Position numbers and translations under genes: made by a program. DNA of 20,544 nt from an uncultured Deinococcales bacterium (GTDB lineage Bacteria; Deinococcota; Deinococci; Deinococcales; JAAFIG01): positions 1 to 20,544 of the forward strand of contig CAXTTL010000067.1 in the NCBI GenBank assembly GCA_964247135.1. The letters are read 5' to 3'. Shown here piece by piece: positions 2 to 15,336 of the stretch (its first letter is position 1; each line of letters starts with the position of its first letter). The notes under the pieces were generated by a model, which was not told the DNA's origin, did not search any database, and saw only the letters and a list, made by a program, of their open reading frames with translations.

Positions 2-175
2 TTCAGTCCCCACCAATGGCAGGAGGTCAGCGTTTTTGAAAATTCCAATGTGCGGGAAGCCTTGTCCAGGATGATTTCGCTGGGTTTTCAAGTGCTGCCC
101 GTGGTCAACGAAACTGGGGTTTTGACTGGCGAACTGAGCCTCGAGCAAGCGTTGAACGCCAAAGGAAATTCGTGA
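2..175 (+). CDS. 3' end of osmoprotectant ABC transporter ATP-binding subunit (C-terminal CBS-like domain), partial
   Basis: Open frame from the window edge reads FSPHQWQEVSVFENSNVREALSRMISLGFQVLPVVNETGVLTGELSLEQALNAKGNS*, a CBS-like pattern (LPVV..G.L.G). Its TGA overlaps the GTG of the downstream permease (GTGA, 172-175). Confidence 0.7.
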   Translation, partial: FSPHQWQEVSVFENSNVREALSRMISLGFQVLPVVNETGVLTGELSLEQALNAKGNS

Positions 176-918
176 ACTCGAGCCGCAAATCTGTGCCCCT
201 GGTGCTGATTTTGGGTGCGCTTTCGTTTGCCGTTATTTTGTTTGTCTTTACCCAAACCAGGGCTTGGGAAATCGTTCTAAAATTTTTGTTTCCGCTCGAA
301 GAAAACGTTTTGTACGGCACGGTGACGCTGTTCAATTTGGCGTTAACGCATCTGCAATTGATTGCCGCCTCGAGCCTCATCACCACGGTTTTGGGCGTGA
401 TGTTGGGCATTTTTGTCACGCGATCTTCGGGTCGAGAATTTTTGCCGCTCGTCTCGAGTTTTACGGCTCTCGCCCAAACTTTCCCGCCCGTGGCGGTCTT
501 GGCGCTCAGTTATCCGATTTTGGGCTTCGGGTTTTACCCCGTCTTGATTGCCTTATGCCTGTACGGTCTGCTGCCGGTTTTAACGGGTACGCTGGCAGGC
601 ATTGGCAGCGTGGACGCCGCCGCGCTCGAGGCGGCTCGAGGCATGGGCATGACAAACTTTCAAGTGCTGACCCAAGTCGAATTGCCACTGGCGATGCGCC
701 CGTTGTTCGGCGGCATTCGCACCAGTTTGGTGATCAACATCGGCACGGCAGCCATCGGTGCAGCCATCGGCGCTGGCGGGCTTGGCTTACCGATTTTTGC
801 CGGACTCGAGAATCAGAACTTTGCCTTCGTGCTCGAGGGGGCGCTCAGCGTGGCGATGCTGGCACTCTGGGCGGATTGGGTGATGGGTTTGCTCGAGAAT
901 GCCTTGATTCGGGGTTGA
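172..918 (+). CDS. Osmoprotectant (glycine betaine/choline) ABC transporter permease, OsmW/YehW-like
   Basis: Multiple TM helices, EAA motif (EAARGMGMT), QTFPPVAVLAL and IGAGGLG motifs typical of OpuBB/YehW permeases. Confidence 0.9.
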   Translation: MNSSRKSVPLVLILGALSFAVILFVFTQTRAWEIVLKFLFPLEENVLYGTVTLFNLALTHLQLIAASSLITTVLGVMLGIFVTRSSGREFLPLVSSFTALAQTFPPVAVLALSYPILGFGFYPVLIALCLYGLLPVLTGTLAGIGSVDAAALEAARGMGMTNFQVLTQVELPLAMRPLFGGIRTSLVINIGTAAIGAAIGAGGLGLPIFAGLENQNFAFVLEGALSVAMLALWADWVMGLLENALIRG

Positions 919-1044
919 AGCATTTTGAAGTTTTACAAAAATACTTCTGTTGGGGTGTGAAAATATGTTGCCAGATTCGTGGCGGGTTTTTTGCGGCATT
1001 GATTGGCAGTATGCTTACGGCGCCTTGCCTATCCGTTGACGCGC

Positions 1045-1239
1045 TTCTTGACCCTGAAAGCAGCACCTTCTTGATGCCAAAACGCACCCTCTTGACCATA
1101 AAATGCACCTTACGGGCATGGTCGCTTCTTGACCATAAAATGCACCTTACGGGCATGGTCGCTTCTTGACCCTGAAAGCAGCACCTTCTTGATGCCAAAA
1201 TGCACCTGGCGGGCGGCATCGCTGACGGGCTTGGGTCGC
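1045..1239 (+). repeat. Tandem and nested cluster of 37-40 nt hairpin micro-elements (variants A, B, C)
   Basis: Order: A-left 1045-1067, B-left 1068-1088, C 1089-1125, C 1126-1162, A-left 1163-1185, B 1186-1222, A-right 1223-1239. Complete units share (T/C)TCTTGA...GCACC...CGGGC...TCGC. Confidence 0.9.
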
Positions 1240-1292
1240 TTCGCGCTTTCACTCCAATGCGAGGCGCTGCTTGTTTATGCTCGCACAGCTCG

Positions 1293-1323
1293 AAAATGAT
1301 TGACAAACTGCGTCAATCATTTT
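1293..1323. repeat. Perfect 12-bp inverted repeat
   Basis: AAAATGATTGAC-aaactgc-GTCAATCATTTT. Confidence 0.8.
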
Positions 1324-1431
1324 GAAATTTGCGGTAAGTCTTGCCTCGATTTGATCAACGTCGTTTTGGATGAAGAGAAGGAAACCAAGCGAACTTGATG
1401 CTTCATGAGCACATTCTTAACCTCGAGCGTC

Positions 1432-1437
1432 TATACT
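1432..1437 (+). promoter_or_regulatory. -10 box of a probable leaderless transcript
   Basis: TATACT 6 nt upstream of GTG 1444; no Shine-Dalgarno (SD) sequence. Confidence 0.6.
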
Positions 1438-1443
1438 GTTCGG

Positions 1444-2244
1444 GTGTTGAAGCGTTTTTCCCTTGCCTGCCTTGCCGGACTCAGCTTCGTCGGCTGTAGC
1501 CGCGATGTCGATTCGATTGCACCGCAAATCGTGATCGTCAAACCCAGAGACGGCAAGGTCACCCAAACCGAAAAACTCGAGGTCGAAGGTTATGCCTGGG
1601 ACGACGCTGGGGTGTTGAAGGTCGTGGTGAACGGCGAACGCGATTTGATGGTCGACCCCAAATTTAAGGATCAGCGTGGGCGCAAATTGGTGAAGTTCTC
1701 GTTTATTGCCACGTCCTTAAGTTCGCAAAAAGCGGCTTACGAGGTGCGTGCCGTGGATATTCACGGGCACTCGAGCACCGCCGAAATCAACATCACGCGG
1801 GACACCAAAAAACCAACGATCAATGTCGAAAACCTCGATTCGCTGGTCGGTACGGTGGCGGTGACGGGTTCGATTGAAGACAACATGCAGGTCAAAAAAG
1901 TGCTGGTCAACGGCGAGGCGCTGAACATTGCGCCGTCTGCCAAGGTGCCGTTTTATGCGGTGGTCAACCGCAATCGGAGCGGGATTATTTTGATTGAAGC
2001 TTTTGACGCGGTGGGCAATAAAGCCAGCCGCAGTGTCAACATGCCGGCACCACCAGCGCCACCGCCTGTGGTGGTGCCAACACAAAATCAGAATGGTACA
2101 GGGGTTAGCAACACTACGGGAACAACCACCCAGACCACGACCACGCGTCGACGCAGAAGGCGGGTCCGAGCAGCCACGACGACGACCACACAGCAGTCCG
2201 CCAGCACGCCCGCGCCGGTGGTCGTCCCAACGACACCTCGTTAA
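1444..2244 (+). CDS. Lipoprotein with two Ig-like beta domains and a Pro/Thr/Arg-rich tail
   Basis: Start refined from 1405 to GTG 1444, giving signal MLKRFSLACLAGLSFVG-C (lipobox). Repeated 'D..P.I...V.G...D...V..V.VNG...A.D..GN' Ig-like pattern; low-complexity C-terminus. Confidence 0.75.
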   Translation: MLKRFSLACLAGLSFVGCSRDVDSIAPQIVIVKPRDGKVTQTEKLEVEGYAWDDAGVLKVVVNGERDLMVDPKFKDQRGRKLVKFSFIATSLSSQKAAYEVRAVDIHGHSSTAEINITRDTKKPTINVENLDSLVGTVAVTGSIEDNMQVKKVLVNGEALNIAPSAKVPFYAVVNRNRSGIILIEAFDAVGNKASRSVNMPAPPAPPPVVVPTQNQNGTGVSNTTGTTTQTTTTRRRRRRVRAATTTTTQQSASTPAPVVVPTTPR

Positions 2245-2246
2245 AT

Positions 2247-2948
2247 TTAGCTTTTATGCACTTCCAACTCGAGCTTGAAATTGCCGCGCCGCGTTTCGTT
2301 GATGACGCGTTTAAATTCGATGCGTCCAAGCTTTTCGGCAACCAAAGTGTCGCCCTCGCGGATGCTGGTGCTCGAGCTTGCCAGTTGACCGTTGATGCGC
2401 ACGTTTTTGCCCTCGATGCCCGCCTGAAAGTATGCCCGCGAAACGCCAAAGCCTTTGGCGCCGACCACATCCACGCGCATACTGGGCACGACGACCTCAC
2501 GGGTTTTGACGCTGCGCTCGAGGTTGCTGGCGTCCAGGACTTCCATTTGCAGCTCGAGTTCGCGCCCCTGAATCCGCAGATGGCTCAGGCTTTGAAGCTG
2601 CTTGAGTCCTTTTTGCAGCGTCGCCACCAAGAACATGCCGTGTTGTTCGCGGAGGTCGCCGCGCAACTCATCGGGCAGATTGATCGCCACGCGAATGTCT
2701 TGAACGTCGGTGTTTTCCGCAAAATCTGCCTCGAGCCGCACGATTTTAACGGGGTCGTCCACGTTGGGAATATGCTCTGGATACAGGGTGTAAATCACGC
2801 GGGACGGGTCTGGGAAACCACCGTGCACGGCGAAACGCACGCCGTCGGCAGCCAGGGCGCGGCGATCCACCGATCCACCCTCGACAAAACCCGTGCGAAC
2901 CACGCGTCCACCTCGAGCTTGAGAAACCAGTGTGCGCAGATCGGTCAT
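2247..2948 (-). CDS. YlmH/Sll1252-family RNA-binding protein with C-terminal S4 domain
   Basis: C-terminal S4 motif SMRVDVVGAKGFGVSR...I..KNVRING....IREGD.L....GR; N-terminal TGF and GG motifs typical of YlmH. Confidence 0.85.
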   Translation of the reverse strand: MTDLRTLVSQARGGRVVRTGFVEGGSVDRRALAADGVRFAVHGGFPDPSRVIYTLYPEHIPNVDDPVKIVRLEADFAENTDVQDIRVAINLPDELRGDLREQHGMFLVATLQKGLKQLQSLSHLRIQGRELELQMEVLDASNLERSVKTREVVVPSMRVDVVGAKGFGVSRAYFQAGIEGKNVRINGQLASSSTSIREGDTLVAEKLGRIEFKRVINETRRGNFKLELEVHKS

Positions 2949-3091
2949 GCTGCCTCGAGTGTAAACTTCATGCCCTCACAAAACCACGCCGAGGCAAGGA
3001 TTTCAAGTCCGAGTTGAACAAATGAGCCGAATTGAAGCGGTACCCATGCTCGGCGAGGTATGGTATTCAAAAATCTCAAGGGGCTTTTCAG

Positions 3092-3892
3092 ATGTTTTCG
3101 ACCCGTACAGCCAACACTCAACATTGGACGCAGCACCTGACGCTTGGATTGGTGAGCGGCTTATTGCTAGGCAGCGTGGTTGTTTTGATTTATTCGGAAA
3201 CCAAATGGTATGTACCTTTGGTGATCCTGCTGCTCAGCCTTGCCATGAGCTTGAACGGTTTGACCAGACGAATCTTAAACATCTTGACGCTTTGTGTCGG
3301 TTTTCTTTTGGCGTTGTGTGTTTTTACGCCCGTCTTGCAACCCGTACAACGTTTTCTGGATGTCACCCAACTGCCCAGCCGTGCGGATGTGATCGTGATT
3401 TTGGGTGGCGGATTGCATTGCGGCTCGACCGACCTTGAATCCTCGAGCCTTGCCCGTACTGTCAAAGGATTGGAACTTTGGAAGGCTGGTTACGCACCAA
3501 CCATCACCATTTCGGACACGACAGGCTTGTGGGACAACTGCGTCAGCCTCGAGCAAACCATCCGTCGAGAGATAAGCAGCCTCGAGCCTAGAAACCCGCC
3601 AGAGATGGTGGTCTTGCCAGGCGTTCAAAACACCCACATGGAAGCCGAGGCGGTTTTAAGGGAAGCCAAGAAACGTGGTTGGAAAACCATTTTGATCGTG
3701 ACTGCACCGGCGCATTCCAGGCGTGCTCGAGCCACGTTCACGCAGCTTAAACTCCAAGCTTTTGTGGTAAGTTCTTCTGAGCCGCGTTATGACACCGATT
3801 TGCACTTGCCCCATGACCGTCTGCAAGCCTTACCCGTGATCGTTCGAGAGCTGGCGGGTTTCGTGAAGTACACGCTATTGGGTTGGTTCTAA
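3092..3892 (+). CDS. YdcF/ElyC/SanA (DUF218) family membrane protein
   Basis: N-terminal TM helices; [11 protein letters not shown]...G.EL, NT..EA and ILIVT.PAHSRRA motifs; C-terminal RE..G.VKY. Start uncertain (ORF is open from 3032; ATG 3092 chosen). Confidence 0.85.
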
Positions 3893-5064
3893 CCTAACTC
3901 CTGCCAAAAACTCGAGCCTACACCATCCCATTTAACGTTCAGCGCCTCGGCGACCGTTGCGCCCAAATCGGCAAAGCTGCTGCGTTCACCCAGGTTGATG
4001 TTGCTTGTCCCAGGCTTAAACGCCAGCAGCATCGCATGTTCGCGGGTGTGATCGGTGCCAAACCAAGTCGGGTCGTTGCCGTGGTCGCTGAGAATAAACA
4101 GTGCGCCGTCTTCTGGCACAGCGTTGATCAAATCTGGCAGCGCATCGTCAAATTCTTTTAAAGCGCCTGCGTAACCCGCCACGTCGCGCCGATGACCGAA
4201 TTTGGCGTCAAAATCGACCAGATTCAGAAACGCCAAACCGTTAAAACCCGAGCGCATGACCGCCAGCATTTTTTGAATCCCGTCGCTGTTGTTGTCGGTG
4301 TGAACGCTTGTGGTAAAACCGCGACCGGCGTAAATATCGGGGATTTTACCCAGACCGATCACGTCCAGTTTTGCCTCGAACAACGCGTCCAAGACCGTTC
4401 TGGGTGGCTCGAGACTGAAATCTTTGCGAGCCTCGTTGACGCGATCAAACGGGTACACGCCTTTGAATGGGCGGGCAATCACCCTTGCCACCGCGTACTG
4501 TCCTCGCAAAATGTCCCTGGCTTTCTGACACCAGTCATACAATTGCTCGAGCGGCACCTTGTCAACGTGGGTCGCAATCTGAAAGACGCTGTCGGCGCTG
4601 GTGTAGACAATCGGGTTTCCAGTCTCGAGGTGGGCGGCTCCAAAGTCGCGGATCACGTCCGTTCCCGAGTACACCTTATTGCAGAGCCAACCGCATCCGA
4701 TGGCTTTTGAAAAGGCATCCATGACCTCGGGCGGAAATCCGTCATAAAAGGTTTTAAACGGATGCTCGAGTTGCACGCCCATGAACTCCCAATGTCCGGT
4801 GCTGGTGTCCTTGCCCAGACTGATTTCACGCATTCGTCCGAACGCACCCGTTGGCTTTGGAACTTTGCTGGCATTGACGCTTGGAATCCAACCCAGCCCC
4901 AGACGCTCGAGGTTTGGTAATTGCACGCCTGAACTTTGCAGGACGTGGTTGATGGTGTGCGAACCCGCGTCGCCGTTTGGATGCTCGAGGTTTGCCGAGA
5001 ATTTGGCGGCGTCTGGCAGTTCGCCAACGCCCACGCTATCGAGCACAATCACGCTGATTTTCAT
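3889..5064 (-). CDS. deoB: Phosphopentomutase
   Basis: [56 protein letters not shown] and DHGNDPT..GTDHTRE motifs. Confidence 0.97.
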
Positions 5065-5070
5065 GGCTCG

Positions 5071-5076
5071 AGTTTA
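5071..5076 (-). promoter_or_regulatory. -10 box of probable leaderless deoB transcript
   Basis: Minus strand reads TAAACT-cgagcc-ATG (6-nt spacing). Confidence 0.65.
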
Positions 5077-5255
5077 CTGCACAATTTCGCATCAACCAAA
5101 AAGGGGGTACTGGCGACGGCGACCAGTGAAACCTGCCTGGTTTATGAGCAGAAGCCCTCTCGTAGTTCATCTTCAAACTCGGTATGATTTCGCCTGGTTT
5201 GGTTGTCAAATCAAACCTCGAGTTGACGGGAGTGATGCTCGAAGCCAGGGGAGGC

Positions 5256-6032
5256 ATGATGAAATTTAAAATCGCATCGATTCTGATGTTGGCATTGATT
5301 GGCGCGGTGTTCGCGGCGAGCCGAGACTTTTTGACGATTCATCAATCTGGCACAATCGTTATTGGCACCGACGGCGCATTTCCGCCGTTCAGTTTTAAGC
5401 AAAGCGGGCAATTGGTGGGCTTTGAGGTTGACCTTGCCAACGCCATCGCCAAGAGTTTGGATGTCAAAACCGAGTGGCGCACCGTACCGTTTACCGAGTT
5501 GCTGCCCGATCTCAGGCAAGGCAAATTCGATTTTGTGATCGCCTCGCACGGCATCACCCCAGAGCGTCAGAAGGTGGTCGATTTCGCCACGCCGCATTAC
5601 TGCACCGGCGGCATGATCGTGTCCAAAACCGACGGTCCAAAAACGATTCTCGAGCTTCCAGGGCAACGCATCGGTGTTCAGGTGGGCACAACCTATCTGC
5701 AAAATGCCCTCAAAATTCCTGGCGTGCTCAAAAGCGACGTGAAAGGTTACGCCAAAGACGGCGACGCGCTGCGTGACCTGATTGCGGGTAAAATTGATGT
5801 TTGGATCACCGATAAATTTGTGGCGCTCGATGTCATCAAAAACAATCCAAAAGCCGACCTCGAGCATGGCGATTTAATTTTTACCGAACGCATTGCGATT
5901 GCGGTCGCCAAAGGCAACAACACGGTCGTGGGTTCGATCAACAGCGCATTGATCGGTTTAATGAACGACGGCACATACGAGAAAATCTCGAACCGTTGGT
6001 TCGGCGAAGACATTCGCTGCGAGGGGAATTAA
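5256..6032 (+). CDS. Polar amino-acid ABC transporter substrate-binding protein (SBP family 3)
   Basis: Signal peptide; GTDGAFPPF, GFEVDLANAIA, L..GKFD, ITPERQKVVDF and DGTYEKISNRWFG motifs. GGGGAGG RBS lies just before ATG 5256/5259, so the ORF-track start at 5184 is unlikely. Confidence 0.93.
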   Translation: MMKFKIASILMLALIGAVFAASRDFLTIHQSGTIVIGTDGAFPPFSFKQSGQLVGFEVDLANAIAKSLDVKTEWRTVPFTELLPDLRQGKFDFVIASHGITPERQKVVDFATPHYCTGGMIVSKTDGPKTILELPGQRIGVQVGTTYLQNALKIPGVLKSDVKGYAKDGDALRDLIAGKIDVWITDKFVALDVIKNNPKADLEHGDLIFTERIAIAVAKGNNTVVGSINSALIGLMNDGTYEKISNRWFGEDIRCEGN

Positions 6033-6610
6033 AGCAACCCGAGCAAATCTGAAATCACCCAAGCCGTCATGCCCCAAATGTCAAAACCTTGCCAGTCGTA
6101 ATGCAGCACCTCGTTTGAGCGGGTGCGGTAGGCTTTGGGGTCGCTTGGCAGTTTGGCGTTGGGCGGCAGATTGCGCGGTTCATATCTGGGTTTTAAAACT
6201 TTTAATTCCTCGAGCGGGACATGTAAAATCTGTGCCACCTCATTCGGGTCTGCCTGGAGTTTTGCTGGTTGGCTTATCAAACCCAGCACGGGTGTGACAT
6301 GAAATCCTTGTGGCGTCCAGACATCGTCGAGCATTCCAAGAACCTGTACCAAACTTGCATCCAAACCAATTTCTTCCTGGGCTTCACGCAACGCCGCTTC
6401 AATTGGCGTCTCGAGGGTGTGCAACGAACCGCCAGGGAACGAAATCTGTCCTTTGTGGGTCGGCAAGTGCGCGGTTCGTACCGTCAAAATCAGGTGCGGT
6501 TCTGGCTCGAGCACCACTGGCACCAGCACCGCCGCCCGCCGAAATTCTGGCAGCTCGAGTTCGCGTCTGTTGCGGATTTTGAGGGCTTGTTCAAACCTTG
6601 TGAAATCCAT
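6029..6610 (-). CDS. Nudix hydrolase, CoA pyrophosphatase subfamily
   Basis: AAVLVP, LTVRTAHLPTHKGQISFPGG (NuCoA motif), Nudix box ALREAQEEIGL, IWGMTA. Confidence 0.93.
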   Translation of the reverse strand: MDFTRFEQALKIRNRRELELPEFRRAAVLVPVVLEPEPHLILTVRTAHLPTHKGQISFPGGSLHTLETPIEAALREAQEEIGLDASLVQVLGMLDDVWTPQGFHVTPVLGLISQPAKLQADPNEVAQILHVPLEELKVLKPRYEPRNLPPNAKLPSDPKAYRTRSNEVLHYDWQGFDIWGMTAWVISDLLGLL

Positions 6611-7229
6611 TGACCGCTTCCTGAACTCGGGTTTCGAGCCGTTCGCGCAAGATCACTTCAGGATTTTCTTTTAAACTTCGCGTCCAAGCGATCAGCGCCT
6701 CGAGCACATCTGCCGCGCCTTTCCCGTCGTCGCTCGCGTTTTCAAGTGCCGCCAATACTTCTGCCTTAGAACCCTTTTTTGCCCCAAGCGCTTTGTGAAC
6801 CTCAACACCTCGAGCCAACGCGCCGAGTGCCCGTGGCACGCGTTCGACAGGGTGCGGTTCGGGTTTGTCTGCACGCTCGAGTTTCTTGATTTCATCCCAG
6901 TTTTTTTTGACCGTTTGCGCATCTGGCGCAACAACGTCACCAAACACATGCGGATGCCGACGAATCAACTTTTCGACGATGGCAGTCTCGATGGTTTCGT
7001 AACGGTACTCGCCCGTCTCCTCGGCAATCACCGCATGAAACGCGACCTGCAACAACACATCACCCAACTCACCCGCCACCTCGAGCGGCGTGCCAACACT
7101 GATCGCATCCACGGCTTCGGCTGCCTCCTCGAGCAAATACGGGCGCAAGCTTTGATGGGTTTGCTCCTGATCCCAGGGACAACCGTTCGGGGCGCGAAGT
7201 TGACGCATGATCTCGAGAAGGCGCTTCAT
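6591..7229 (-). CDS. mazG: MazG-family nucleoside triphosphate pyrophosphohydrolase
   Basis: LRAPNGCPWDQEQTHQSL..YLLEEA.E, ELGDVLLQV.FHA, KLIRRHPHVFG, W..IK..E. Confidence 0.95.
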   Translation of the reverse strand: MKRLLEIMRQLRAPNGCPWDQEQTHQSLRPYLLEEAAEAVDAISVGTPLEVAGELGDVLLQVAFHAVIAEETGEYRYETIETAIVEKLIRRHPHVFGDVVAPDAQTVKKNWDEIKKLERADKPEPHPVERVPRALGALARGVEVHKALGAKKGSKAEVLAALENASDDGKGAADVLEALIAWTRSLKENPEVILRERLETRVQEAVNGFHKV

Positions 7230-7235
7230 ACCTCG

Positions 7236-7241
7236 AGTCTA
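7236..7241 (-). promoter_or_regulatory. -10 box of probable leaderless mazG transcript
   Basis: Minus strand reads TAGACT-cgaggt-ATG (6-nt spacing). Confidence 0.65.
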
Positions 7242-7320
7242 TCAAGACGCGCTGGCTTAAAAGGGTGAGGCAACAGACCGAATCAGAAAACTCGAGCGAA
7301 ACGGGTAAAGAAATTAAACG

Positions 7321-7355
7321 CCCTTCTCTCCTGGGAGAGAAGGGTCGGGGATGAG
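7321..7355. repeat. REP-like palindrome CCCTTCTCTCC-tg-GGAGAGAAGGG with flanking TCGGGGATGAG
   Basis: Perfect 11-bp inverted repeat at 7321-7344. The minus strand reads CTCATCCCCGACCCTTCTCTCCCAGGAGAGAAGGG, resembling widespread 'CCCTCAnCCC..CCCTnTCCCnnnGGGAGAnGG' extragenic repeats. Confidence 0.6.
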
Positions 7356-7406
7356 ATGGGAAATGGCAATTGCTCATCCATGTCTTGAGAAGGAAATACT
7401 TAATTC

Positions 7407-8606
7407 TCAAACCGCCACAATAAAATCCCGCAACTCGTACCCTTTGACCGTTTCATTCCAACCCATTGTTGCAGGGCGTTCGACGCGCAATGTCGGGATT
7501 GCCAGCAGTTTTTGCAAGAAAATATCGGTCTCCTGAATGGCGATAAAACTGCCTGGGCAACGGTGATGACCGTCGCCAAAACCCATCACGGCGGGTTGCA
7601 CGCCTTTGGGCAGTTCGCGGTCGGTGCGAAGGTCGTGCGGACACGCGCCGACCGTGCGTTCGTCGGCGTTGGCGCTGTCCAGATGCACCGCAATTTTGGC
7701 GCCCTTGGGAATCGTCACGGTCTGCCCGCCCGATTCAAGCTCGAGGTTTTCGGTGGTGCGACGCTCGAGCATCGTGACCACAGGCTCGAGGCGCAAGATT
7801 TCGCCCAACATGGCATGGCGTTCCACTTCGCCTGCCACCAGAAAGCGTTCGCGCAGTTTTGGACGCTCGAGAAAGTGCATGGTTGCCACGCAAATAAATT
7901 CGCGGGTCGTTGCCATGCCTGCCGCGCCGTAGGTCACGCATTCGGACAAGACTTCGGGCGGCGTGTAACCTTCGCCCAGCACGTGCGAGATCACATCCTC
8001 TCGGGGTTGTTTTTTGCGTGCGTTGATGGCGGGTTGCACGTCCAGAAAAAAGAACGCCAGCAAATTCCAACGCGCGGCAATGACCTCGAGAATTTTGCTT
8101 TGATCGGGCGAATGCACCAAACCCGAAATCCGTGCGCCCATGCCAGGCACGCGGCTGCTGGTCAGTCCAACCACTTGCGCGGCAACTTCGACCGCCAGTT
8201 TCATTGAGATTTTGCTCAAATCTGCTCTGCCTTTTTTGACCAAATCTGCGACCAGGTCGGCGCAGAGTTTTTCCATCATCGGGCGGTAATTGGCGTCGGT
8301 GTAATTGGGCGTGAAAAAACGTGCGGTCTTGCGGCGCAAGTCATGGTGTACTTCACCCTCGAGATGAAGTACTGGCGCTCGCATGTTGGCGGGCATTTTT
8401 GCCACCAATTCCGCACCAAAACCCGCCTGCTTGACATTGTTGCTGCGAAGCACCGATTTCACTTCATCGTGCCCTCGAGCGTGCCAAAGACCGTTTTCGT
8501 CCACGTTCAGGCTCGGAGTACTCGAGACTTCAGCCCGAGCGGTTTTACGGGCATTGTGGTCTACAGGGCAGCCATTGGCTTGTGGATTTGTTGAATCTGA
8601 AGTCAT
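7407..8606 (-). CDS. Cytochrome P450
   Basis: Heme motif FGDGHHRCPG, K-helix EILR (ExxR), I-helix AAGMATT, H..LR C-helix motif. Confidence 0.95.
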   Translation of the reverse strand: MTSDSTNPQANGCPVDHNARKTARAEVSSTPSLNVDENGLWHARGHDEVKSVLRSNNVKQAGFGAELVAKMPANMRAPVLHLEGEVHHDLRRKTARFFTPNYTDANYRPMMEKLCADLVADLVKKGRADLSKISMKLAVEVAAQVVGLTSSRVPGMGARISGLVHSPDQSKILEVIAARWNLLAFFFLDVQPAINARKKQPREDVISHVLGEGYTPPEVLSECVTYGAAGMATTREFICVATMHFLERPKLRERFLVAGEVERHAMLGEILRLEPVVTMLERRTTENLELESGGQTVTIPKGAKIAVHLDSANADERTVGACPHDLRTDRELPKGVQPAVMGFGDGHHRCPGSFIAIQETDIFLQKLLAIPTLRVERPATMGWNETVKGYELRDFIVAV

Positions 8607-8630
8607 GCCCGTTATTCTGACCGAAAACCC

Positions 8631-8667
8631 AAAGTGACATCTGTGACTTTTGAGACATTGTGTATCA
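8631..8667. promoter_or_regulatory. Two imperfect palindromes, candidate TetR operators between the divergent P450 and tetR genes
   Basis: AAAGTGACA-tc-TGTGACTTT (8631-8650) and TGAGACA-ttg-TGTATCA (8651-8667), each with one mismatch. Confidence 0.55.
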
Positions 8668-8682
8668 TTTCGTTGGAATCCT

Positions 8683-8688
8683 TATAAT
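8683..8688 (+). promoter_or_regulatory. -10 box of probable leaderless tetR transcript
   Basis: TATAAT-aacccc-GTG(8695). Confidence 0.7.
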
Positions 8689-8694
8689 AACCCC

Positions 8695-9276
8695 GTGCCC
8701 GAAAACCCAACCCTCACCGACAAACGCATCAACCAGACGCGACGCGCCCTGACCGGCGCCCTGATCGCCCTGACCCTCGAGAAAGGCTACGACGCCCTGA
8801 CCGTGCGCGACATCAGCGAACGCGCCGACATCGGGTACGCCACGTTTTTTCGCCATTTTTCGGACAAAGATGCCCTGCTCGAGGATGTGCTCGAGGGAAC
8901 GTTGACCGATTTTTTGGGATTGATTCAGCCTGTCATCAACGATCCAGAACGCACCGTGACACTTGTTTTTGAGCACGTCAAACAAAACCCCGACCCTGTT
9001 CGCGTCTTGCTGCGCACCCGCAACGTCAGTCCACTTTTACCGCGCATATTCGCTTTTTCCTCGCAAGCCATGCTCGAGAGGCTGACCCCAAATCCCGAAA
9101 GCGTCATTCCACCCGAGATTGCCGCGCATCACATGATCGTCTCGATTCTCGAGTTGATCGAATGGTGGCTCGATCATGAGATGCCTTACCCACCAAAAAG
9201 CATGGGCAAAATCGTCAATGCGCTGATCATGCAGCCCACGCGAAATTTGGCTTTCCTTGAACGAACCCACAGCTAA
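8695..9276 (+). CDS. TetR/AcrR family transcriptional regulator
   Basis: DKRINQTRRAL..ALI.L..EKGYDALTVRDISERADIGYATFFRHFSDKDALL HTH; C-terminal I.WWL. Start refined to GTG 8695. Confidence 0.93.
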   Translation: MPENPTLTDKRINQTRRALTGALIALTLEKGYDALTVRDISERADIGYATFFRHFSDKDALLEDVLEGTLTDFLGLIQPVINDPERTVTLVFEHVKQNPDPVRVLLRTRNVSPLLPRIFAFSSQAMLERLTPNPESVIPPEIAAHHMIVSILELIEWWLDHEMPYPPKSMGKIVNALIMQPTRNLAFLERTHS

Positions 9277-9278
9277 AA

Positions 9279-9917
9279 TTAAGGCTCAATATAGGTTTTA
9301 AAATGCTGTTCAACAATGTCAGTCACTTCGTCCACCGATTGTGTACCATCAACCTCGAGTGTACACAATCCAAGCCCGATGGCTTGTTGCCTCAAATCCT
9401 CAGACAACAGCAAATCACGTCTGAAAAGGTTTTCCCGAGCCTGAATTGGATCACTGATCTGACCACCAAAAGAACCTTTGTTGCGCCGAGTCATCGAATC
9501 TTGTTTGAACTTTTCGGAAGGGAACAAAAATATCGCCTGATGCGTATTTATGATTGTTGATGCCAGCAATCCAGGTGTGAAACCAAACCCCTCGGCAATC
9601 AAAAACCGACCAGCAGGCAACCAAATGGCGTGCAAATCCTCAAGTATAAAATTCCAACGATCCTGAAAAGACTGCATTGCTCGAGCTGCCAACGCTGCGG
9701 GACTGGGTTTAAGCCAGTTTTCCTCGAGCGAGGCGTTCATAAATTTCGCATAGTCCGCCTTGGTTTGGGCAAGACGACGATGATGTGGCACGTCGCTGCG
9801 ATCATAATGGTAAACCGCCCACCCGTTTCGAGTGGCAAGTTCCTGGGCAACTGTTGTCTTGCCAGAATCGGTTGCACCACCGAGAAATAAAACATTTGTG
9901 AAGGGATAATCTGACAC
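9279..9917 (-). CDS. P-loop NTPase / kinase-like hypothetical protein
   Basis: Walker A LFLGGATDSGKTTVAQELA and C-terminal VDGTQSVDEV typical of the NMP/shikimate-kinase fold. AGGAGG RBS 5 nt before GTG 9917. Confidence 0.75.
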   Translation of the reverse strand: MSDYPFTNVLFLGGATDSGKTTVAQELATRNGWAVYHYDRSDVPHHRRLAQTKADYAKFMNASLEENWLKPSPAALAARAMQSFQDRWNFILEDLHAIWLPAGRFLIAEGFGFTPGLLASTIINTHQAIFLFPSEKFKQDSMTRRNKGSFGGQISDPIQARENLFRRDLLLSEDLRQQAIGLGLCTLEVDGTQSVDEVTDIVEQHFKTYIEP

Positions 9918-10033
9918 AAAAACCTCCTGACAGAACTTTATCGCCTCGAGCTTGGCGCAGACAAAGCAATTGCACACTGTCATCCGAGTCAGAATCGGCT
10001 ATACTTTCAAAAGATCAGCAAGCGATTCACCAT

Positions 10034-11638
10034 TTAATCCATCTCCGTCAGTCTCAAACTTGGAATTTCAAGTGTTTTATTGGCAACATTTTCGAGCAAC
10101 TTGCGATCGTGTGAAGCAAAAATGATGGTGCCGCTAAACTCGAGCAGCAATTTCTCGAGCGCCTGAATTGCGTCAATGTCCAGGTTGTTGGTGGGTTCGT
10201 CTAAGATCAACAGATGCGCTTTGGTCACGCTTAAACGCGCCAGCGAAAGTCGAGTCCGTTGACCGCCGCTCAAAGTCGATATGGCTCGAGTTGGGTCTTT
10301 TGGCAGCCCCAAGCTTGCCAATAATGCAAACAATTCTCGAGTCTCGAGGTCAGGATTTGCAGCGAGCAGTGCGTCTTTGAGGGTTTGGTATTCATCAAGT
10401 TCTTCAGTGTTCTGCCCAGCCCAGTAAATGTTCAACCCAACGCCAGTCAGAATTTTGCCGCTCGAGATTGGAAGTTGCCCAAGAATCGCTTTGATCAGCG
10501 TGCTTTTGCCGCCGCCGTTCGCACCGACGAGCGCCAATCGTTCGCCGCGCCGAACATGCAAATTGAGATGCTCGAGAATCAATTTCTCACCACGCTCGAG
10601 TTTTAAGTCCTCGAGCGTCAACACCTCATTTGGTCCGTGGTTGAGAAGCCCGAGTTTGATGCGGGTCATGAAGTTTTCTTCAAACGGTTTCTCGAGTTCG
10701 CCCATATGCTCAATGCGTTTCTCGAGCGCCAGTGTGCGTCGTCCGCTCTTGTGTGTGGCTCGGTTCATGAGGTGGCTGGCGGTGGTCTTGTCACGGCTTC
10801 CGACGCGGTGCTTGTTCTCGGCTCGAGAGGCTTGCTGGGCGGCAAGTTGCGCCTCAATGTGCAATTGTTTGACCTTGCGTTCGTGGTTCTCAAAGGCAAT
10901 CAACGCCGATTCTCGCAAGACCCGTTTCACCTCCATCGCCTCGGAATAATTTCCTGGATACTCGGTCAACTTTTGCCGCTCGAGTTCATAACATCGCGTG
11001 ACCGTTGCATCCAAGAACGCCCGATCATGCGATACAATCAAAAACCCTGCCTCAGAAGAATTCACAAAATCCTCGAGCCAAACCAGACTCTCGAGGTCAA
11101 GATGGTTGGTCGGTTCGTCGAGCAAATAAAAATCGCTCGGTTCGATCAGTAACCTTGCCAAAAGCGCTCGGCGTTCCTGTCCGCCAGACAGCGCTTGACT
11201 CGAGAAATCGCCGTTCAATCCCAAACCTGCCAGAATGCTTTCGGCTCGAGCTTCGATGTCGTAACCGCCAGCCACACGAAAATTCTCTTCTGCAATGGCG
11301 AACCGTTCAAGGTTTTCTTCACTTGGATGTTCAAGGTTTTGTTGTGCCATCTCGAGTTCGGTTTTAAGTTGCCTGTGACGCACTGGCAGCACAATCTCGC
11401 GTAAACTCCCTGTCTCAAGTTCAGACCGTTGCTCGAGGTACGCCATTCGCCCCGAACCACTGACCTCGCCAGCGTCAGGAAGCTCGAGTTTGGTCAAGAG
11501 TTTCATCAGTGTGGTTTTGCCACTGCCATTGCGCCCAAGAAGCCCGACGCGATCACCCGCATGAAGCTCGAGGGTTGCATTTTCAAAAATAAGATTGTCG
11601 GCGTAACGTTTTGTTACGCGCTTTAACAATAAACTCAA
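10034..11638 (-). CDS. ABC-F family ATPase (possible ribosomal protection protein)
   Basis: Two ABC domains (GRNGSGKTT, LSGGQ, LLDEPTNHLD; GANGGGKST, LSGGQ, ILDEPTNNLD), no TM segments, long helical linker. The GGAGG RBS favours TTG 11638 over 11644. Confidence 0.93.
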   Translation of the reverse strand: MSLLLKRVTKRYADNLIFENATLELHAGDRVGLLGRNGSGKTTLMKLLTKLELPDAGEVSGSGRMAYLEQRSELETGSLREIVLPVRHRQLKTELEMAQQNLEHPSEENLERFAIAEENFRVAGGYDIEARAESILAGLGLNGDFSSQALSGGQERRALLARLLIEPSDFYLLDEPTNHLDLESLVWLEDFVNSSEAGFLIVSHDRAFLDATVTRCYELERQKLTEYPGNYSEAMEVKRVLRESALIAFENHERKVKQLHIEAQLAAQQASRAENKHRVGSRDKTTASHLMNRATHKSGRRTLALEKRIEHMGELEKPFEENFMTRIKLGLLNHGPNEVLTLEDLKLERGEKLILEHLNLHVRRGERLALVGANGGGKSTLIKAILGQLPISSGKILTGVGLNIYWAGQNTEELDEYQTLKDALLAANPDLETRELFALLASLGLPKDPTRAISTLSGGQRTRLSLARLSVTKAHLLILDEPTNNLDIDAIQALEKLLLEFSGTIIFASHDRKLLENVANKTLEIPSLRLTEMD

Positions 11639-11655
11639 CGCCAAACCTCCAAATC

Positions 11656-11680
11656 AAGAAACGCCCCAAAGTTTCGGGGC
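11656..11680 (-). terminator. Intrinsic terminator (attenuator) in the ABC-F leader
   Basis: GCCCCGA-aact-TTGGGGC followed by GTTTCTT, immediately upstream of the ABC-F RBS. Confidence 0.7.
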
Positions 11681-11699
11681 AGATCGTGCCGATCAGGAT

Positions 11700-11717
11700 T
11701 TAGCGCAAGCGTGTCAA
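11700..11717 (-). CDS. Putative leader peptide MTRLR upstream of ABC-F
   Basis: AGGAG (11726-11730), 8-nt spacer, then TTG ACA CGC TTG CGC TAA. Confidence 0.6.
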   Translation of the reverse strand: MTRLR

Positions 11718-11919
11718 GAAATTTTCTCCTACAAGAAGCAAATGGTCGCTGCTCGAGAAACCCGAGCCAGTGATTTAGTTTTGCAGACAAATCGCCACCA
11801 CGTCAATACGCCAAAAACCTTATTTGACCAAAACAGTATCGCAAACGCGTCACCAGCCCTCGAGATTTGGGTTAAACTGCCCTTGAAATACAGCTCGAGC
11901 ATTCGGAGGAGGAGTCATC

Positions 11920-13074
11920 ATGGTGAAAACAGTTGGCGTTCTGTTGGCGGTCACACTGGCAGTCGTCGGGGTTTCGGCACTCGCGCAAAGTGGTCTGAAC
12001 AAACTCGGCAAAGGCGAAGGGCGGCTTGATATTGTCGCTTGGCCTGGTTACATCGAACGCGGCGCGTCGGACAAAGCCTACGACTGGGTCACGGCTTTCG
12101 AGAAAAAAACCAGTTGCAAAGTCAACGTCAAAACCGCAGGCACCTCTGACGAGATGGTCACGCTGATGAACCAAGGCGTCTACGACCTCGTGACCGCATC
12201 GGGCGACGCCAGTTTGCGCTTGATCGCAGGCAAAACCGTGCAACCCATCAACACCAAATTAATCTCGAGTTACGCCAAAATTGACAAGCGCCTGCAAAGT
12301 GCCGCCTGGCACACGATCAACGGCGTTCATTACGGTACACCCTACCAATGGGGTCCAAACGTGTTGATGTACAACACCGATGTCTTCAAAAGCGCGCCGA
12401 CCTCTTGGAGCGTGGTCTTTGAAGAACAAAACCTGCCCGACGGCAAAAGCAACAAAGGACGTGTCCAAGCCTACGACGGACCGATTTACATCGCCGATGC
12501 CGCGCTCTACCTGATGAAAAAAGACCCAAGCCTCGGCATCATCGACCCTTACGAGTTAACCGAAGTGCAATACGCCAAAGTGCTCGAGGTTCTGCGCAAG
12601 CAACGCCCACTGATCCAACGTTTCTGGCACGACGCCAACGTTCAAGTGCAAGACTTCACCAACGAAGGCATTGTCGCCAGTGGCTCGTGGCCATTCCAGG
12701 TCAACACTTTGCAAGCCAACAAACAAAAAATTGGCAGCACCGTGCCGCTCGAGGGCGCGACAGGCTGGGCAGACACGACCATGATGGGCAGCAAAGCCAA
12801 GCACCCAAACTGTGCCTACATGTGGATGGAGCACAGCCTGAACGCCAAAGTTCAAGGCGATGTCGCTGCTTGGTTCGGTGGCGTACCCGCCGTACCCGCC
12901 GCCTGTACTGCCAGCGATCTTCTTGGCAAAGAAGGTTGCAAAACCAATGGGTACAACAACTTCAACAAAATCAAATTCTGGAAAACCCCGACCAGCGCTT
13001 GCTTAAGCCAAAGCAAATGCGTGCCGTACAACCGTTGGGTGTCCGATTACGTGGCGATCATGGGCGGGAAATAA
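11920..13074 (+). CDS. ydcS: Polyamine-type ABC transporter substrate-binding protein (YdcS-like)
   Basis: EGRLDIVAWPGYIERG, TASGDASLRLI, YGTPYQWGPN, NLPDGKSNKGRVQAYDGPIYIADAAL and TGWADTTM match my recollection of E. coli YdcS. Strong GGAGGAG RBS. Confidence 0.93.
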   Translation: MVKTVGVLLAVTLAVVGVSALAQSGLNKLGKGEGRLDIVAWPGYIERGASDKAYDWVTAFEKKTSCKVNVKTAGTSDEMVTLMNQGVYDLVTASGDASLRLIAGKTVQPINTKLISSYAKIDKRLQSAAWHTINGVHYGTPYQWGPNVLMYNTDVFKSAPTSWSVVFEEQNLPDGKSNKGRVQAYDGPIYIADAALYLMKKDPSLGIIDPYELTEVQYAKVLEVLRKQRPLIQRFWHDANVQVQDFTNEGIVASGSWPFQVNTLQANKQKIGSTVPLEGATGWADTTMMGSKAKHPNCAYMWMEHSLNAKVQGDVAAWFGGVPAVPAACTASDLLGKEGCKTNGYNNFNKIKFWKTPTSACLSQSKCVPYNRWVSDYVAIMGGK

Positions 13075-13117
13075 CTCGAGCCGCAAGTTAAATCTCGAGT
13101 TTTTAAAAGAATGTATT

Positions 13118-13181
13118 GTAGGGGTGAACCTTCTTGACCATAAACGCGCACCTTGCGGGCATGGTCGCTTGTGTTCACCCT
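13118..13181 (+). repeat. GTAG-type REP palindrome interrupted by a micro-element
   Basis: GTAG-GGGTGAAC-c[insert 13131-13168]ttgt-GTTCACCC-T. Confidence 0.8.
13131..13168 (+). mobile_element. 38-nt hairpin micro-element (variant C) in REP loop
   Basis: TTCTTGACCATAAACGCGCACCTTGCGGGCATGGTCGC, near-identical to 1126-1162. Confidence 0.75.
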
Positions 13182-13283
13182 TTCCCACACATCGGGAATG
13201 CCAACATAAGGTCGCTCGAGATTTGGGTTTGCATATTGATAACCAATGAATTCTGTTCAAATGTTTAGAAATCGTTGATCCGC

Positions 13284-13345
13284 AGGGCGCATTGCTTTCT
13301 TGACCATAAAACGCACCTTTCGGGCATGGTCACATGCGCCCCTAC
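13284..13345 (-). repeat. GTAG-type REP palindrome (inverted partner) interrupted by a micro-element
   Basis: Minus strand reads GTAG-GGGCGCAT-[insert]agca-ATGCGCCC-T. Confidence 0.8.
13297..13333 (+). mobile_element. 37-nt hairpin micro-element (variant C) in REP loop
   Basis: TTCTTGACCATAAAACGCACCTTTCGGGCATGGTCAC. Confidence 0.75.
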
Positions 13346-13384
13346 GCGGAAAACCATAAAAACCATCGTCTCGAGGTTTCACCA

Positions 13385-14404
13385 ATGCTCAATCCAAATT
13401 CCAATTCTGTTGCCGTTCAACTCGAGGATGTGGTCTGCACTTTCGGCACGCCACCCAAAGAAACCAGGGCGGTGGATCACGTCAACCTCGAGATTCAAGC
13501 TGGAGAATTTTTCAGCTTGCTGGGTCCAAGCGGCAGTGGTAAGACAACATGTTTGCGGCTTATTGGTGGCTTCGAGCGTCCAAGCGCGGGTAAGATCAGT
13601 TTGTTCGGCACGGACGCCAGCCGTTTACCGCCGTACCAACGTGAGTTGAACACCGTGTTTCAAGATTACGCCTTGTTCCCGCACATGAACGTGCTCGAGA
13701 ATGTGGGTTACGCCCTGATGGTGCGTGGTGTGGCAAAAACCGAACGCGTTAAACGTAGCGAGGCGATGCTCGAGGCGGTGAAATTGTCGGGTTTTGGCTT
13801 GCGTAAACCCGCGCAACTTTCGGGTGGGCAACGGCAACGTGTGGCACTCGCTCGGGCGCTGGTCAACCGTCCGAAAATCTTGTTGCTCGACGAACCACTC
13901 GGGGCGCTGGATTTAAAACTCCGTGAGGAAATGCAGATTGAACTCAAAGCCTTGCAACGCGAGTTGGGCATCACCTTTATTTTTGTCACGCACGACCAAG
14001 GCGAAGCATTGTCGATGTCTGACCGCGTGGCGGTTTTTAACCACGGCAAAATCGAGCAACTTGACACGCCTCGAGTCTTGTACGATTCACCGCGCACCGA
14101 ATTTGTGGCGCGTTTTGTCGGCAGCGCCAACGTGATTTCTGGAAATTTGATCGGACGGACTGGCATATACGCCCTGCGTCCCGAAAACATTGCTGTGCTC
14201 GAGGGAACATTTGAGGGCACAAACCGTCTCCAAGGCGAACTGCTTGACATTCACTTTCTCGGTTCGCTGACTCGCCTCGAGGTTCGGGTGGGCAATGAAC
14301 GCCTGACCACGATGCAAAGCGTCACACCAACTTTTGAGCGCGGCGCAAAAATCACGCTCGAGTGGCAGGACAGCAGCTTGCGCAAACTCGAGGAAGCCGT
14401 ATGA
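13385..14404 (+). CDS. ydcT: Polyamine ABC transporter ATP-binding protein (PotA/YdcT-like)
   Basis: GPSGSGKTT, NTVFQDYALFPHM, LSGGQRQRVALARAL, LLLDEPLGALD, VTHDQ, C-terminal TOBE. Start refined to ATG 13385 (GAGG RBS). Confidence 0.92.
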   Translation: MLNPNSNSVAVQLEDVVCTFGTPPKETRAVDHVNLEIQAGEFFSLLGPSGSGKTTCLRLIGGFERPSAGKISLFGTDASRLPPYQRELNTVFQDYALFPHMNVLENVGYALMVRGVAKTERVKRSEAMLEAVKLSGFGLRKPAQLSGGQRQRVALARALVNRPKILLLDEPLGALDLKLREEMQIELKALQRELGITFIFVTHDQGEALSMSDRVAVFNHGKIEQLDTPRVLYDSPRTEFVARFVGSANVISGNLIGRTGIYALRPENIAVLEGTFEGTNRLQGELLDIHFLGSLTRLEVRVGNERLTTMQSVTPTFERGAKITLEWQDSSLRKLEEAV

Positions 14405-15336
14405 CCGCGCCGAAAGCTCGAGGCAGTTTTTTAGGACGTGCCCTCAGTTTCTTGCATGGTCGCCCAGTGCTTGGCTTGGTGCTGCTCTTGATCGCGCCAC
14501 TGCTCTGGATGGGCATTATTTACCTTGGCTCACTGCTGAATTTGTTGTTTTACAGTTTTTACTCGCTCGACGACTTCACAGGTCAAATCAAATACGACCT
14601 GACTTTTTCCACCCTGCAACAACTGTTCACCTCGAGCAGCAACATTGACATCGTGCAGCGCACTTTTGTCATGAGTGTGGTCGTGACGATTGCTTGCGCT
14701 TTGATCGCCTTTCCAATCGCGTACTTCATGGCGTTTCACACCAAAGGAAACTCCAAAGCGATCTGGATTTTGCTGGTGCTGCTCCCGCTTTGGAGTAGTT
14801 ACTTGGTACGGGTGTACGCCTGGAAACTGATCCTCGCCAAAGAGGGTGTCATCAGTTGGTTCTTGAATGCACTCGGCATTCACGGCGCATTGGACAGCAT
14901 CCTCAGCATTCCAATCATTGGTGGTACGAGTTTAAGCTCGAGTTACCTCGGCATGTTTCTGGTTTTTGTTTACGTTTGGTTGCCCTACATGATCCTGCCC
15001 ATTCAAGCCAGCCTCGAGCGCGTGCCAAAGTCCTTGCTGCAAGCCTCGAGCGACCTTGGCGCGAAACCGAGTCAAACTTTTTTTCGAGTGCTGCTGCCCT
15101 TGACCGTGCCAGGAATCGCGGCGGGAAGTATCTTTACGTTTTCGCTGACTTTGGGCGATTACATCATTCCAGGCGTGGTGGGCGCTCCAGGGTATTTTAT
15201 TGGGCAGATGGTTTACACCCAGCAGGGCAACGCGGGCAACATTCCGCTCGCCGCTGCCTTTAGCCTCGTGCCGATTGTGGTGATCGGGATTTACCTGACA
15301 ATCGCCAAACGATTGGGGGCTTTCGATGCGCTGTAA
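14401..15336 (+). CDS. ydcU: Polyamine ABC transporter permease (PotB/YdcU-like)
   Basis: LPLWSSYLVRVYAW, WLPYMILPI, ASSDLGA and FSLTLGDYI motifs. ATGA overlap with the upstream gene at 14401-14404. Confidence 0.92.
   Translation: MTAPKARGSFLGRALSFLHGRPVLGLVLLLIAPLLWMGIIYLGSLLNLLFYSFYSLDDFTGQIKYDLTFSTLQQLFTSSSNIDIVQRTFVMSVVVTIACALIAFPIAYFMAFHTKGNSKAIWILLVLLPLWSSYLVRVYAWKLILAKEGVISWFLNALGIHGALDSILSIPIIGGTSLSSSYLGMFLVFVYVWLPYMILPIQASLERVPKSLLQASSDLGAKPSQTFFRVLLPLTVPGIAAGSIFTFSLTLGDYIIPGVVGAPGYFIGQMVYTQQGNAGNIPLAAAFSLVPIVVIGIYLTIAKRLGAFDAL

Follow-up and report, generated by a model that had tools for sequence, protein, structure and literature searches.

A mobile hairpin micro-element of 36–40 nucleotides nested in other small hairpins of a Deinococcales family

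DNA hairpins in which one small hairpin sits inside the loop of another raise the question of how the inner one came to be there. We address this for a hairpin unit of 36–40 nucleotides (nt) that occurs repeatedly in a 20,544-nt stretch of DNA (the window) from an uncultured Deinococcales bacterium (contig CAXTTL010000067.1 of assembly GCA_964247135.1). An earlier interpretation, made from the letters of the window alone (the sequence-only reading), had listed six whole or reconstructable copies and two half-copies of this unit, and our coordinates agree with that list. The genome to which the window belongs (G000) is a 5.09-Mb, 84%-complete assembly, which we analysed together with 18 other genomes of the same family, coded G001 onwards; the sample of 19 covers five genera. 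Our best explanation of the whole, to which we assign a probability of about 55%, is a non-autonomous mobile family that is transferred as single-stranded DNA (ssDNA) by a HUH nuclease of the RAYT or IS200 kind acting in trans.

The unit encodes no protein. From 5′ to 3′ it consists of N-TCTTG, an outer stem of 6 bp, a spacer rich in A, a constant inner hairpin (GC(A)CC, a loop of the form T(N)NC, and GGGC), the stem return and GC, and its constant core is TCTTG ... GCACC-T(N)NC-GGGC ... CGC. The 5′ TTCTT is single-stranded, the A-rich spacer on the 5′ side is unpaired, and the outer stem begins with a G-C pair and otherwise varies. In the alignment of units, TTCTTG at one end and CGC at the other do not form inverted repeats. 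With a strict pattern, G000 yields 79 copies, 39 forward and 40 reverse, so the earlier statement that all copies lie on the + strand holds for the window and not for the genome. A looser pattern, the basis of the count of intact units used below, finds 151 intact units, 110 of them distinct, and an nhmmer profile returns 195 matches at E ≤ 0.01. When whole units were removed and the sequence was searched again (peeling), the rounds in G000 yielded 151, then 21, then 2 whole units, a final set of 174 units at 131 sites. At least 26 outer-stem types occur, the most frequent being GACCAT (55), GACCCT (21) and GGTTTC (15).

The outer stem is conserved in its pairing. Among 44 units (4 from the window and 40 from other contigs) picked by their constant parts only, ignoring stem pairing, five of the six outer pairs show two-sided change. 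Doubly changed cells number 72, against 25.0 ± 5.9 after shuffling (none of 500 shuffles reached 72), and 89.5% of cells are paired, compared with 23–51% when the partner columns are slid; the covariation proposed from the window copies is borne out. Invariance of the inner helix is uninformative in this set, as the search pattern itself fixed that helix. Minimum-energy DNA folds are modest (−5.6 to −7.8 kcal/mol, z from −0.3 to −3.4) and agree with the proposed structure for either strand. The lower-strand loops are G-N-N-A or GAA with a C-G closing pair, and loops of this kind are unusually stable in DNA.

The sequence-only reading had taken the unit for a minimal non-autonomous mobile element that parasitizes repetitive extragenic palindromes (REPs) and itself. 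Empty alleles were sought in relatives, and five orthologous filled and empty sites were found, exact to the base; each pair differs by exactly one unit, and none of the five shows a target duplication. Two of these sites are in the window. The site at 13131 is empty in G002 (gggtgaaccttgtgttcaccc) and filled in G000 and G004, where the unit lies between gaacc and ttgtg; the site at 13297 is filled in G000 only and reads gcgcatggcg/atgcgccc in G002, G003 and G004 (here and below, the slash marks the junction). A third site, in the loop of a repeat that we label R4 as the fourth repeat family, is empty in G005 (cttctccc/aacatc) and holds a 37-nt unit in G001. The remaining two lie in unique coding sequences, both truncated by the unit. 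In a small open reading frame (ORF) at G000:C13:28125, the empty site of G003 (ggctggcgt/tattgcc) corresponds to a 36-nt unit in G000 that creates a stop; in a helix-turn-helix (HTH)-like ORF at G000:C10:5979, G002, G003 and G004 are empty (gtggtcgc/gcaaag) and G000 is filled.

Repeated hosts give further examples. The REP form GGGTGAAC-CTTGT-GTTCACCC is the commonest uninterrupted one in G000 (14 copies) and is also the orthologous empty site in G002. The earlier claim that removing each insert restores a clean hairpin stands for this REP. Unit 13297 calls for a caveat: its host loop TGCT was not seen in uninterrupted paralogues, and its orthologous empty sites read GGCG. A second REP form, REP2 (GTAGGGTGCGC-loop-GCGCACC), has 120 matches in G000 with CGT (38), CTC (25) and CTT (13) as its top loops, and nine of the 120 hold a unit exactly before one of these usual loops. 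REP3 has 14 empty and 4–5 filled copies in G000. With the five filled and empty sites, the REP paralogues and the 21 and 2 units recovered by peeling, the picture of a minimal mobile parasite of REPs and of itself is upheld, and we regard it as very probable that the unit family is mobile DNA that enters its sites precisely and without target duplication.

The two interrupted genes have surroundings of their own. At G000:C13:27000–29300 (L197 1060–1400, − strand), G000 and G003 share a gene of about 420 bp that G001 and G004 lack; its small protein product is basic in its N-terminal part and ends in a hydrophobic tail, a strong hairpin precedes the gene, and the unit truncates it in G000. At G000:C10:5000–9500 (L200), a micro-element sits at the same codon in both members of a pair of paralogous HTH-like reading frames (LEKAGVVAQSTLSQILAGKRG). 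In G001 the counterparts of these two sites are occupied by one and by three units, some of which have halves that do not match.

Where do the units land? Of the 151 intact units, 31 lie in the loop of another unit, after GCACC or GCACCT, 18 directly behind another unit, 29 in loops of GTAG-type REPs and 4 in the head of R4. A further 20 are in R4 between rACCC and TTCTC, two bases into the 5′ arm of the stem, and 49 are elsewhere. The unit prefers the stem–loop junction of other small hairpins, be it a GTAG-REP, another repeat, a chance hairpin in a gene or its own inner loop, and nests and tandem arrays result; insertion in hairpin loops, as the sequence-only reading had it, is a preference and not a rule, given the 20 units in the stem arm and the 49 elsewhere. 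Most insertions are at a stem–loop junction, and about a fifth are at a stem foot. Of 72 sites, 17 are flanked on both sides by the arms of a perfect stem of at least 6 bp, a situation found at 1.2% of 5,000 random places. The empty-site junction reads C/T at 71 of 131 sites and C/N at 105 of 131, with a genome CT frequency of 4.8%; the C/T junctions described earlier are common and not universal, and unit 13297 does sit at T/A as had been stated. Loop insertions are mostly right after the 5′ arm, and some are right before the 3′ arm (window 13297, and the REP beside the RAYT genes of G009 and G014). The left flank often resembles the 3′ end of the unit, as in ...GTGGTCGC/ in the HTH gene and ...GGTCGC/ in tandems. 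Units are also 4–8 times enriched near GTAGGG tags, with 33 of 123 unit clusters within 30 nt of one, against 3.4% of controls. R4 itself (ccctCATCCCCrACCCTTCTCyC-loop-GrGAGAAGG) has 216 stem matches in G000, on both strands, was seen beside L101, L102 and L006, and often hosts the micro-element, for which it has two fixed positions.

The family is confined to related genomes within our samples. The strict pattern is present in 17 of the 18 other family genomes, spanning the five genera, with 1–200 matches each; G015 has no strict match and one match with the looser pattern. Among 22 genomes of four other families there are 0–1 matches, as in the reversed control, and in a phylum sample of 201 genomes the 198 from outside the family have three matches at most, those listed being unlike the unit. 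Copy number varies within one genus (by the looser pattern, 10 in G011 and 82 in G007). Subfamilies are lineage-specific; an example is GATCCT in G008, which occurs as near-identical dispersed copies and as tandems.

Within the window, the units (stem types labelled A, B and C), all on the + strand, form one nest and two single insertions. The nest starts directly 3′ of host GCGC (1041–1044) with an A-type orphan left half (TTCTT-GACCC...GCACC; 1045–1067; repeat D4), followed after its GCACC by a B-type orphan left half (stem GATGCC; 1068–1088). Two whole C-type units stand next in tandem: C1 (1089–1125; stem GACCAT/ATGGTC; repeat D1), whose first base is C, not T, and C2 (1126–1162), with a DNA fold of −5.6 kcal/mol. 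The A-type unit A2, restored in round 2 of peeling, then begins (left part, 1163–1185), is interrupted in its loop after GCACC by the whole B-type unit B2 (1186–1222), and ends (right part TGAC-GGGC-TTGGGTC-GC, 1223–1239) where the host resumes with TTC-GCGC (1240–1246). The block made of an A left half and a B left half is a 47-nt direct repeat with a spacing of 118 nt (family D4). From this order, X-Y-X-rest, a 118-nt piece with two ...CC/ borders would appear to have entered the B loop of an A-with-B nest. In Logan contigs, run X1 contains short pieces identical to the window and no piece that spans 1045–1239, so the order of units in the nest is that of the assembly; other runs contain relatives of about 90% identity with many unit copies, whose joints (for example, a 37-nt skip at 1184–1222) are not assignable to the window locus. 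The two genes that flank the 1045 locus are on separate contigs in five of five same-genus genomes, and the locus allows no empty-site comparison. The host of the nest is itself part of a larger palindromic repeat (acagcggttttcata...gttgacgcgc / A-type unit / ttcgcgc...tatgaaaaccgctgt; window 1000–1270), the centre of which is occupied by an A-type unit in no fewer than four other contigs (G000:C40, C104, C244 and C122).

The two single insertions lie between an ABC-transporter binding-protein gene and an ATPase gene. A GTAG-type REP on the + strand (13118–13180; GTAGGGGTGAAC C/../TTGT GTTCACCC) holds a whole C-type unit of 38 nt in its loop (13131–13168), and one on the − strand (13285–13345; GGGCGCAT TGCT/../ATGCGCCCCTAC) holds a whole C-type unit of 37 nt that ends in CAC (13297–13333). 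TTCTTGA occurs 11 times in the window against 4.12 ± 2.10 expected, a count reached in none of 100 shuffles, and, allowing one mismatch, GCACCNNNNGGGC has 13 matches where 5.92 ± 2.52 are expected. The TTCTTGA at 6883 and that at 14860 were rejected as units, being chance matches within genes. At gathering thresholds, Rfam has no match in the window.

The inner loop of the unit is also the site of a larger element. The sole IS110-family gene of G000 (G000:C51; L005 1233–2485; L106) is inside a unit that is inside a REP, with the junctions gtagggtgcgc/TTCTTGACCATAAAATGCACC/ttgtaagtt...cacggctgc/TTCGGGCAGGGTCGC/cgtgcgcacc. The element is about 1.19 kb long and has copies in relatives (L107–L111). 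In all six copies with readable flanks, from six species, it is inserted only in the inner loop of a unit, at the same bond and with a CT core; this bond, GCAC-CT/.../CT-NNC, is the one that units themselves use. In the six copies, the 5′ non-coding part of the element contains a long stem whose two sides carry (A)A(T/C)GCACC and CCG-NN-AG, respectively, and the reverse complement of CCG-NN-AG equals the loop of the occupied unit in six of six, the loops being TTC (twice), TGAC, TATC, TAAC and TTAC. The stem is a putative bridge-RNA target guide that seems to track the variable loop bases of the unit, a pattern in line with what the published descriptions, as far as consulted, lead one to expect of such a guide (PMC11208160, PMC11208158). 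A scan of three IS110 loci against Rfam by E-value gave no bridge-RNA family and only a sub-threshold L10-leader match. The same 5′ non-coding part holds a unit at acggc/tgc in four of the six copies, and two lack it; across genomes, this internal site is empty in G014 and G017, carries one unit variant in G000, G001 and G003 and another in G004. At G000:C51 a four-level nest is complete: REP, unit, IS110 element and another unit.

How might a unit of this size move? In our proposal the unit would travel as ssDNA. A trans-acting HUH tyrosine nuclease of the RAYT or IS200 kind would cut after C at both unit ends and at the target and would then rejoin the strands; it would read the constant inner hairpin and the single-stranded ends, and the outer stem would only have to pair. 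We favour a single-strand route by HUH chemistry because of elimination and anatomy: there is no duplication, the hairpin is kept in pairing and not in sequence, the unit is too short for a duplex circle, and the cuts are after C and mostly before T. TnpA-REP of Escherichia coli cleaves ssDNA at the bond from C to T, to either side of its hairpin, and is capable of strand transfer, according to the parts of that study consulted (PMC3479197); the C/T junction at 71 of 131 sites is compatible with an activity of this type. A protein query with a RAYT found relatives in 17 of the 19 family genomes and none in G015 (0–1 units) or G017. Pfam Y1_Tnp at E ≤ 1e-5 has matches in 13 of 19 and missed the RAYT genes of G008, G012, G002 and G006, which the protein query recovered. 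We hold the HUH-type, RAYT-like mechanism as such only tentatively, at somewhat short of even odds.

Several observations weigh against this proposal. G017, an 84%-complete genome, has 76 units and no RAYT with the query used, and G011 has several RAYT genes and 10 units. No bare unit was seen to flank a RAYT gene; where a unit was seen beside one, it was inside a GTAG-REP. The unit foot bears neither GTAG nor CGTC on either strand in the alignment, and the proposal does not account for the variable first base (T, G, C or A). By minimum-energy folding, only 26 of 131 sites are in a hairpin loop with a stem of at least 5 bp, against 8% of 1,000 controls; the 20 units in R4 are at the stem foot, 71 of 123 unit clusters have no GTAGGG tag within 200 nt, and five sites at accct/cat require a 38-nt unit or an ambiguous cut. 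Unit strand shows no link to GC skew (p = 0.12, n = 84), and sites in repeated hosts are non-independent events. Finally, the unit core is identical across five genera, whereas REP sequences differ between them, and a core that is constant across genera fits one conserved factor better than it fits fast-changing RAYT–REP pairs.

The search for a gene of the mobilizing enzyme flanked by the unit, which the sequence-only reading had suggested, did not turn one up. The RAYT genes at G000:C136 and G000:C1 and those in G008, G012, G002 and G006 are flanked by GTAG-REPs, the stems of which differ between genera; the ends of the IS200-type gene at G000:C249 carry a hairpin unrelated to the unit, and the ends of the IS110 element differ from those of the unit. 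A search of G000 for long inserts bounded by unit halves found only the IS110 element, which is itself inside a unit. IS200-type matches at E about 1e-28 or better occur in 11 of the 19 family genomes, and IS110 and IS200 transposases are too patchy to be the general mobilizer. Two features of the RAYT genes were seen in passing. At G000:C383 (− strand), a RAYT frame of 222 amino acids runs in frame through an inserted series of REP, micro-element and REP, between the HUH motif and the tyrosine part, and many RAYT matches in the family come as two pieces 100–370 bp apart.

The main alternative is a conserved factor: a host enzyme other than a known transposase that acts on hairpin DNA, such as a topoisomerase, a structure-specific nuclease with a ligase, or a new protein. 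The constant core points to one vertically inherited factor, and none of the three transposase kinds tested tracks the units cleanly; but no candidate was found, there is no precedent, and the argument is built on negatives from incomplete genomes, and we consider this explanation unlikely. Taken further, it would make the unit a new class of mobile DNA, a 37-nt hairpin with no known transposase that is placed by a conserved factor reading the mini-hairpin and cutting after C at stem–loop junctions, and that forms the middle tier of the four-level nest. We are doubtful of this stronger form as well.

Two further explanations are improbable. In one, the units are not mobile themselves; they are of use, for instance as hairpins that bind a protein or terminate transcription, and are spread by their host repeats and by recombination between repeats. 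Repeated hosts do account for many of the 151 units (29 lie in REPs, 24 in R4), the units avoid divergent promoter regions (3 of 76), and composite blocks recur, A-with-B-inside nests being found at five loci; but exact insertions truncate two unique coding sequences, different unit subfamilies are found at the same host position, units are nested in units, and otherwise conserved hosts have orthologous empty sites. In the other, which has a similarly slim chance, the units spread by way of RNA, a reverse transcriptase turning the transcribed hairpin back into DNA at places where single strands are exposed, a route that Elhai is said to have proposed in 2008 for small cyanobacterial repeats. 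Stem changes compatible with G-U pairing, present in few cells of the 44-unit set, and the position of units mostly downstream of genes fit such a route, but orientation to the flanking genes is not fixed (31 versus 22), and all 151 units are exact at both ends, with no tails or truncations. The least probable explanation is that an IS110-family recombinase and its bridge RNA move the units by CT-core exchange, the units being minimal IS110 ends: the IS110 element enters the unit loop at the bond that units themselves use, and for most unit junctions a CT duplication is a possible reading, but a search for the IS110 domain turned it up in no more than 9 of 19 genomes, none of them among the six unit-bearing genomes that are at least 90% complete, the unit ends (TCTTGACC ... 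GGTCG) are unlike the IS110 ends (TGTAAGTT ... ACGGCTG) that a miniature IS110 element would have, unit targets share C/T only, which does not suffice for a guide some 14 nt long, 37 bp cannot be closed into a double-stranded circle, and the covarying stem has no role in RNA-guided duplex recognition.

Among known systems, the unit resembles REPs and REPINs in being a short imperfect palindrome in high copy (151) that is mostly extragenic and vertically kept in its lineage. It fails two defining features of these repeats, the GTAG tag (CGTC is likewise lacking) and the flanking of a cognate RAYT gene, which it was not seen to do on its own. It also differs from them in living in REP loops and in its own loop, in its two-tier hairpin, of which the inner part is constant and the outer stem free to vary, and in a core that is constant across genera, whereas REPs change between them. 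That REP families regularly lie inside a second, unrelated palindrome has been described (Di Nocera et al. 2013, PMC3733652); the relevant passages of that paper note the pattern only, with no self-nesting, empty-site evidence or separate micro-element.

The closest known precedent in behaviour is probably the small dispersed repeats (SDRs) of Nostoc. SDR1–8 were reportedly described by Elhai and colleagues in 2008 as 21–27 nt long, with a shared fold, compensatory changes and nesting in their own copies. The likeness is one of behaviour only: very small size, precise insertion at a fixed place, self-nesting and a host genome full of an iterated palindrome. SDR5 inserts between bases 3 and 4 of HIP1, according to the part of the report consulted (PMC4390886). 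Our unit, unlike the SDRs, is in another phylum, has a different sequence, is somewhat longer, targets stem–loop junctions of several repeat families and genes, and has documented orthologous empty sites. The iterated palindrome of the present family is CTCGAG. It occurs 33,925 times in G000, one copy per 150 bp, and is the top hexamer by more than twofold, with several copies in window 13075–13440; all 19 family genomes have 12,028–35,442 copies, compared with 128–7,001 in 12 genomes of other families, and the reversed word GAGCTC occurs 0 times in G000 and 3–25 times in most family genomes. This over-representation resembles that of the cyanobacterial iterated palindrome HIP1. In a literature search with subscription journals and supplementary files outside its reach, we found no account of the micro-element or of iterated CTCGAG.

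Transposon derivatives offer looser parallels. IS200/IS605 elements and their short derivatives (palindrome-associated transposable elements, PATEs) make no target duplication, have hairpin ends, move by a single-strand mechanism and insert 3′ of a short word. The unit shares with them the lack of target duplication, the hairpin and entry 3′ of a short word, would share the single-strand mechanism, and differs in being one hairpin and not two and in having ends unrelated to the IS200-type gene of G000. Unlike a miniature inverted-repeat transposable element of a DDE transposon, it has neither terminal inverted repeats nor target-site duplication. REPs are also targeted by autonomous insertion sequences of more than 1 kb with their own enzyme, among them IS1397 of the IS3 family; the unit, at 37 nt, encodes nothing, and both land in repeat hairpins. 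IS621 and ISPpu10 of the IS110 family likewise target REPs, a CT core being given for IS110, as far as the sources consulted describe them.

The finding has practical sides. Many contigs end in units, which break short-read assemblies, and units can truncate genes, as in the two cases above. The unit is a defined 37-nt substrate for enzyme discovery and a natural test of hairpin DNA recognition and cutting, and the IS110 copies are a natural series of putative bridge-RNA guides paired with target variants. If our account is true, the unit would rank among the smallest DNA elements whose insertion is documented directly by comparison of genomes, and REP-type repeats would have parasites of their own that are themselves the landing pad of an RNA-guided IS110 element.

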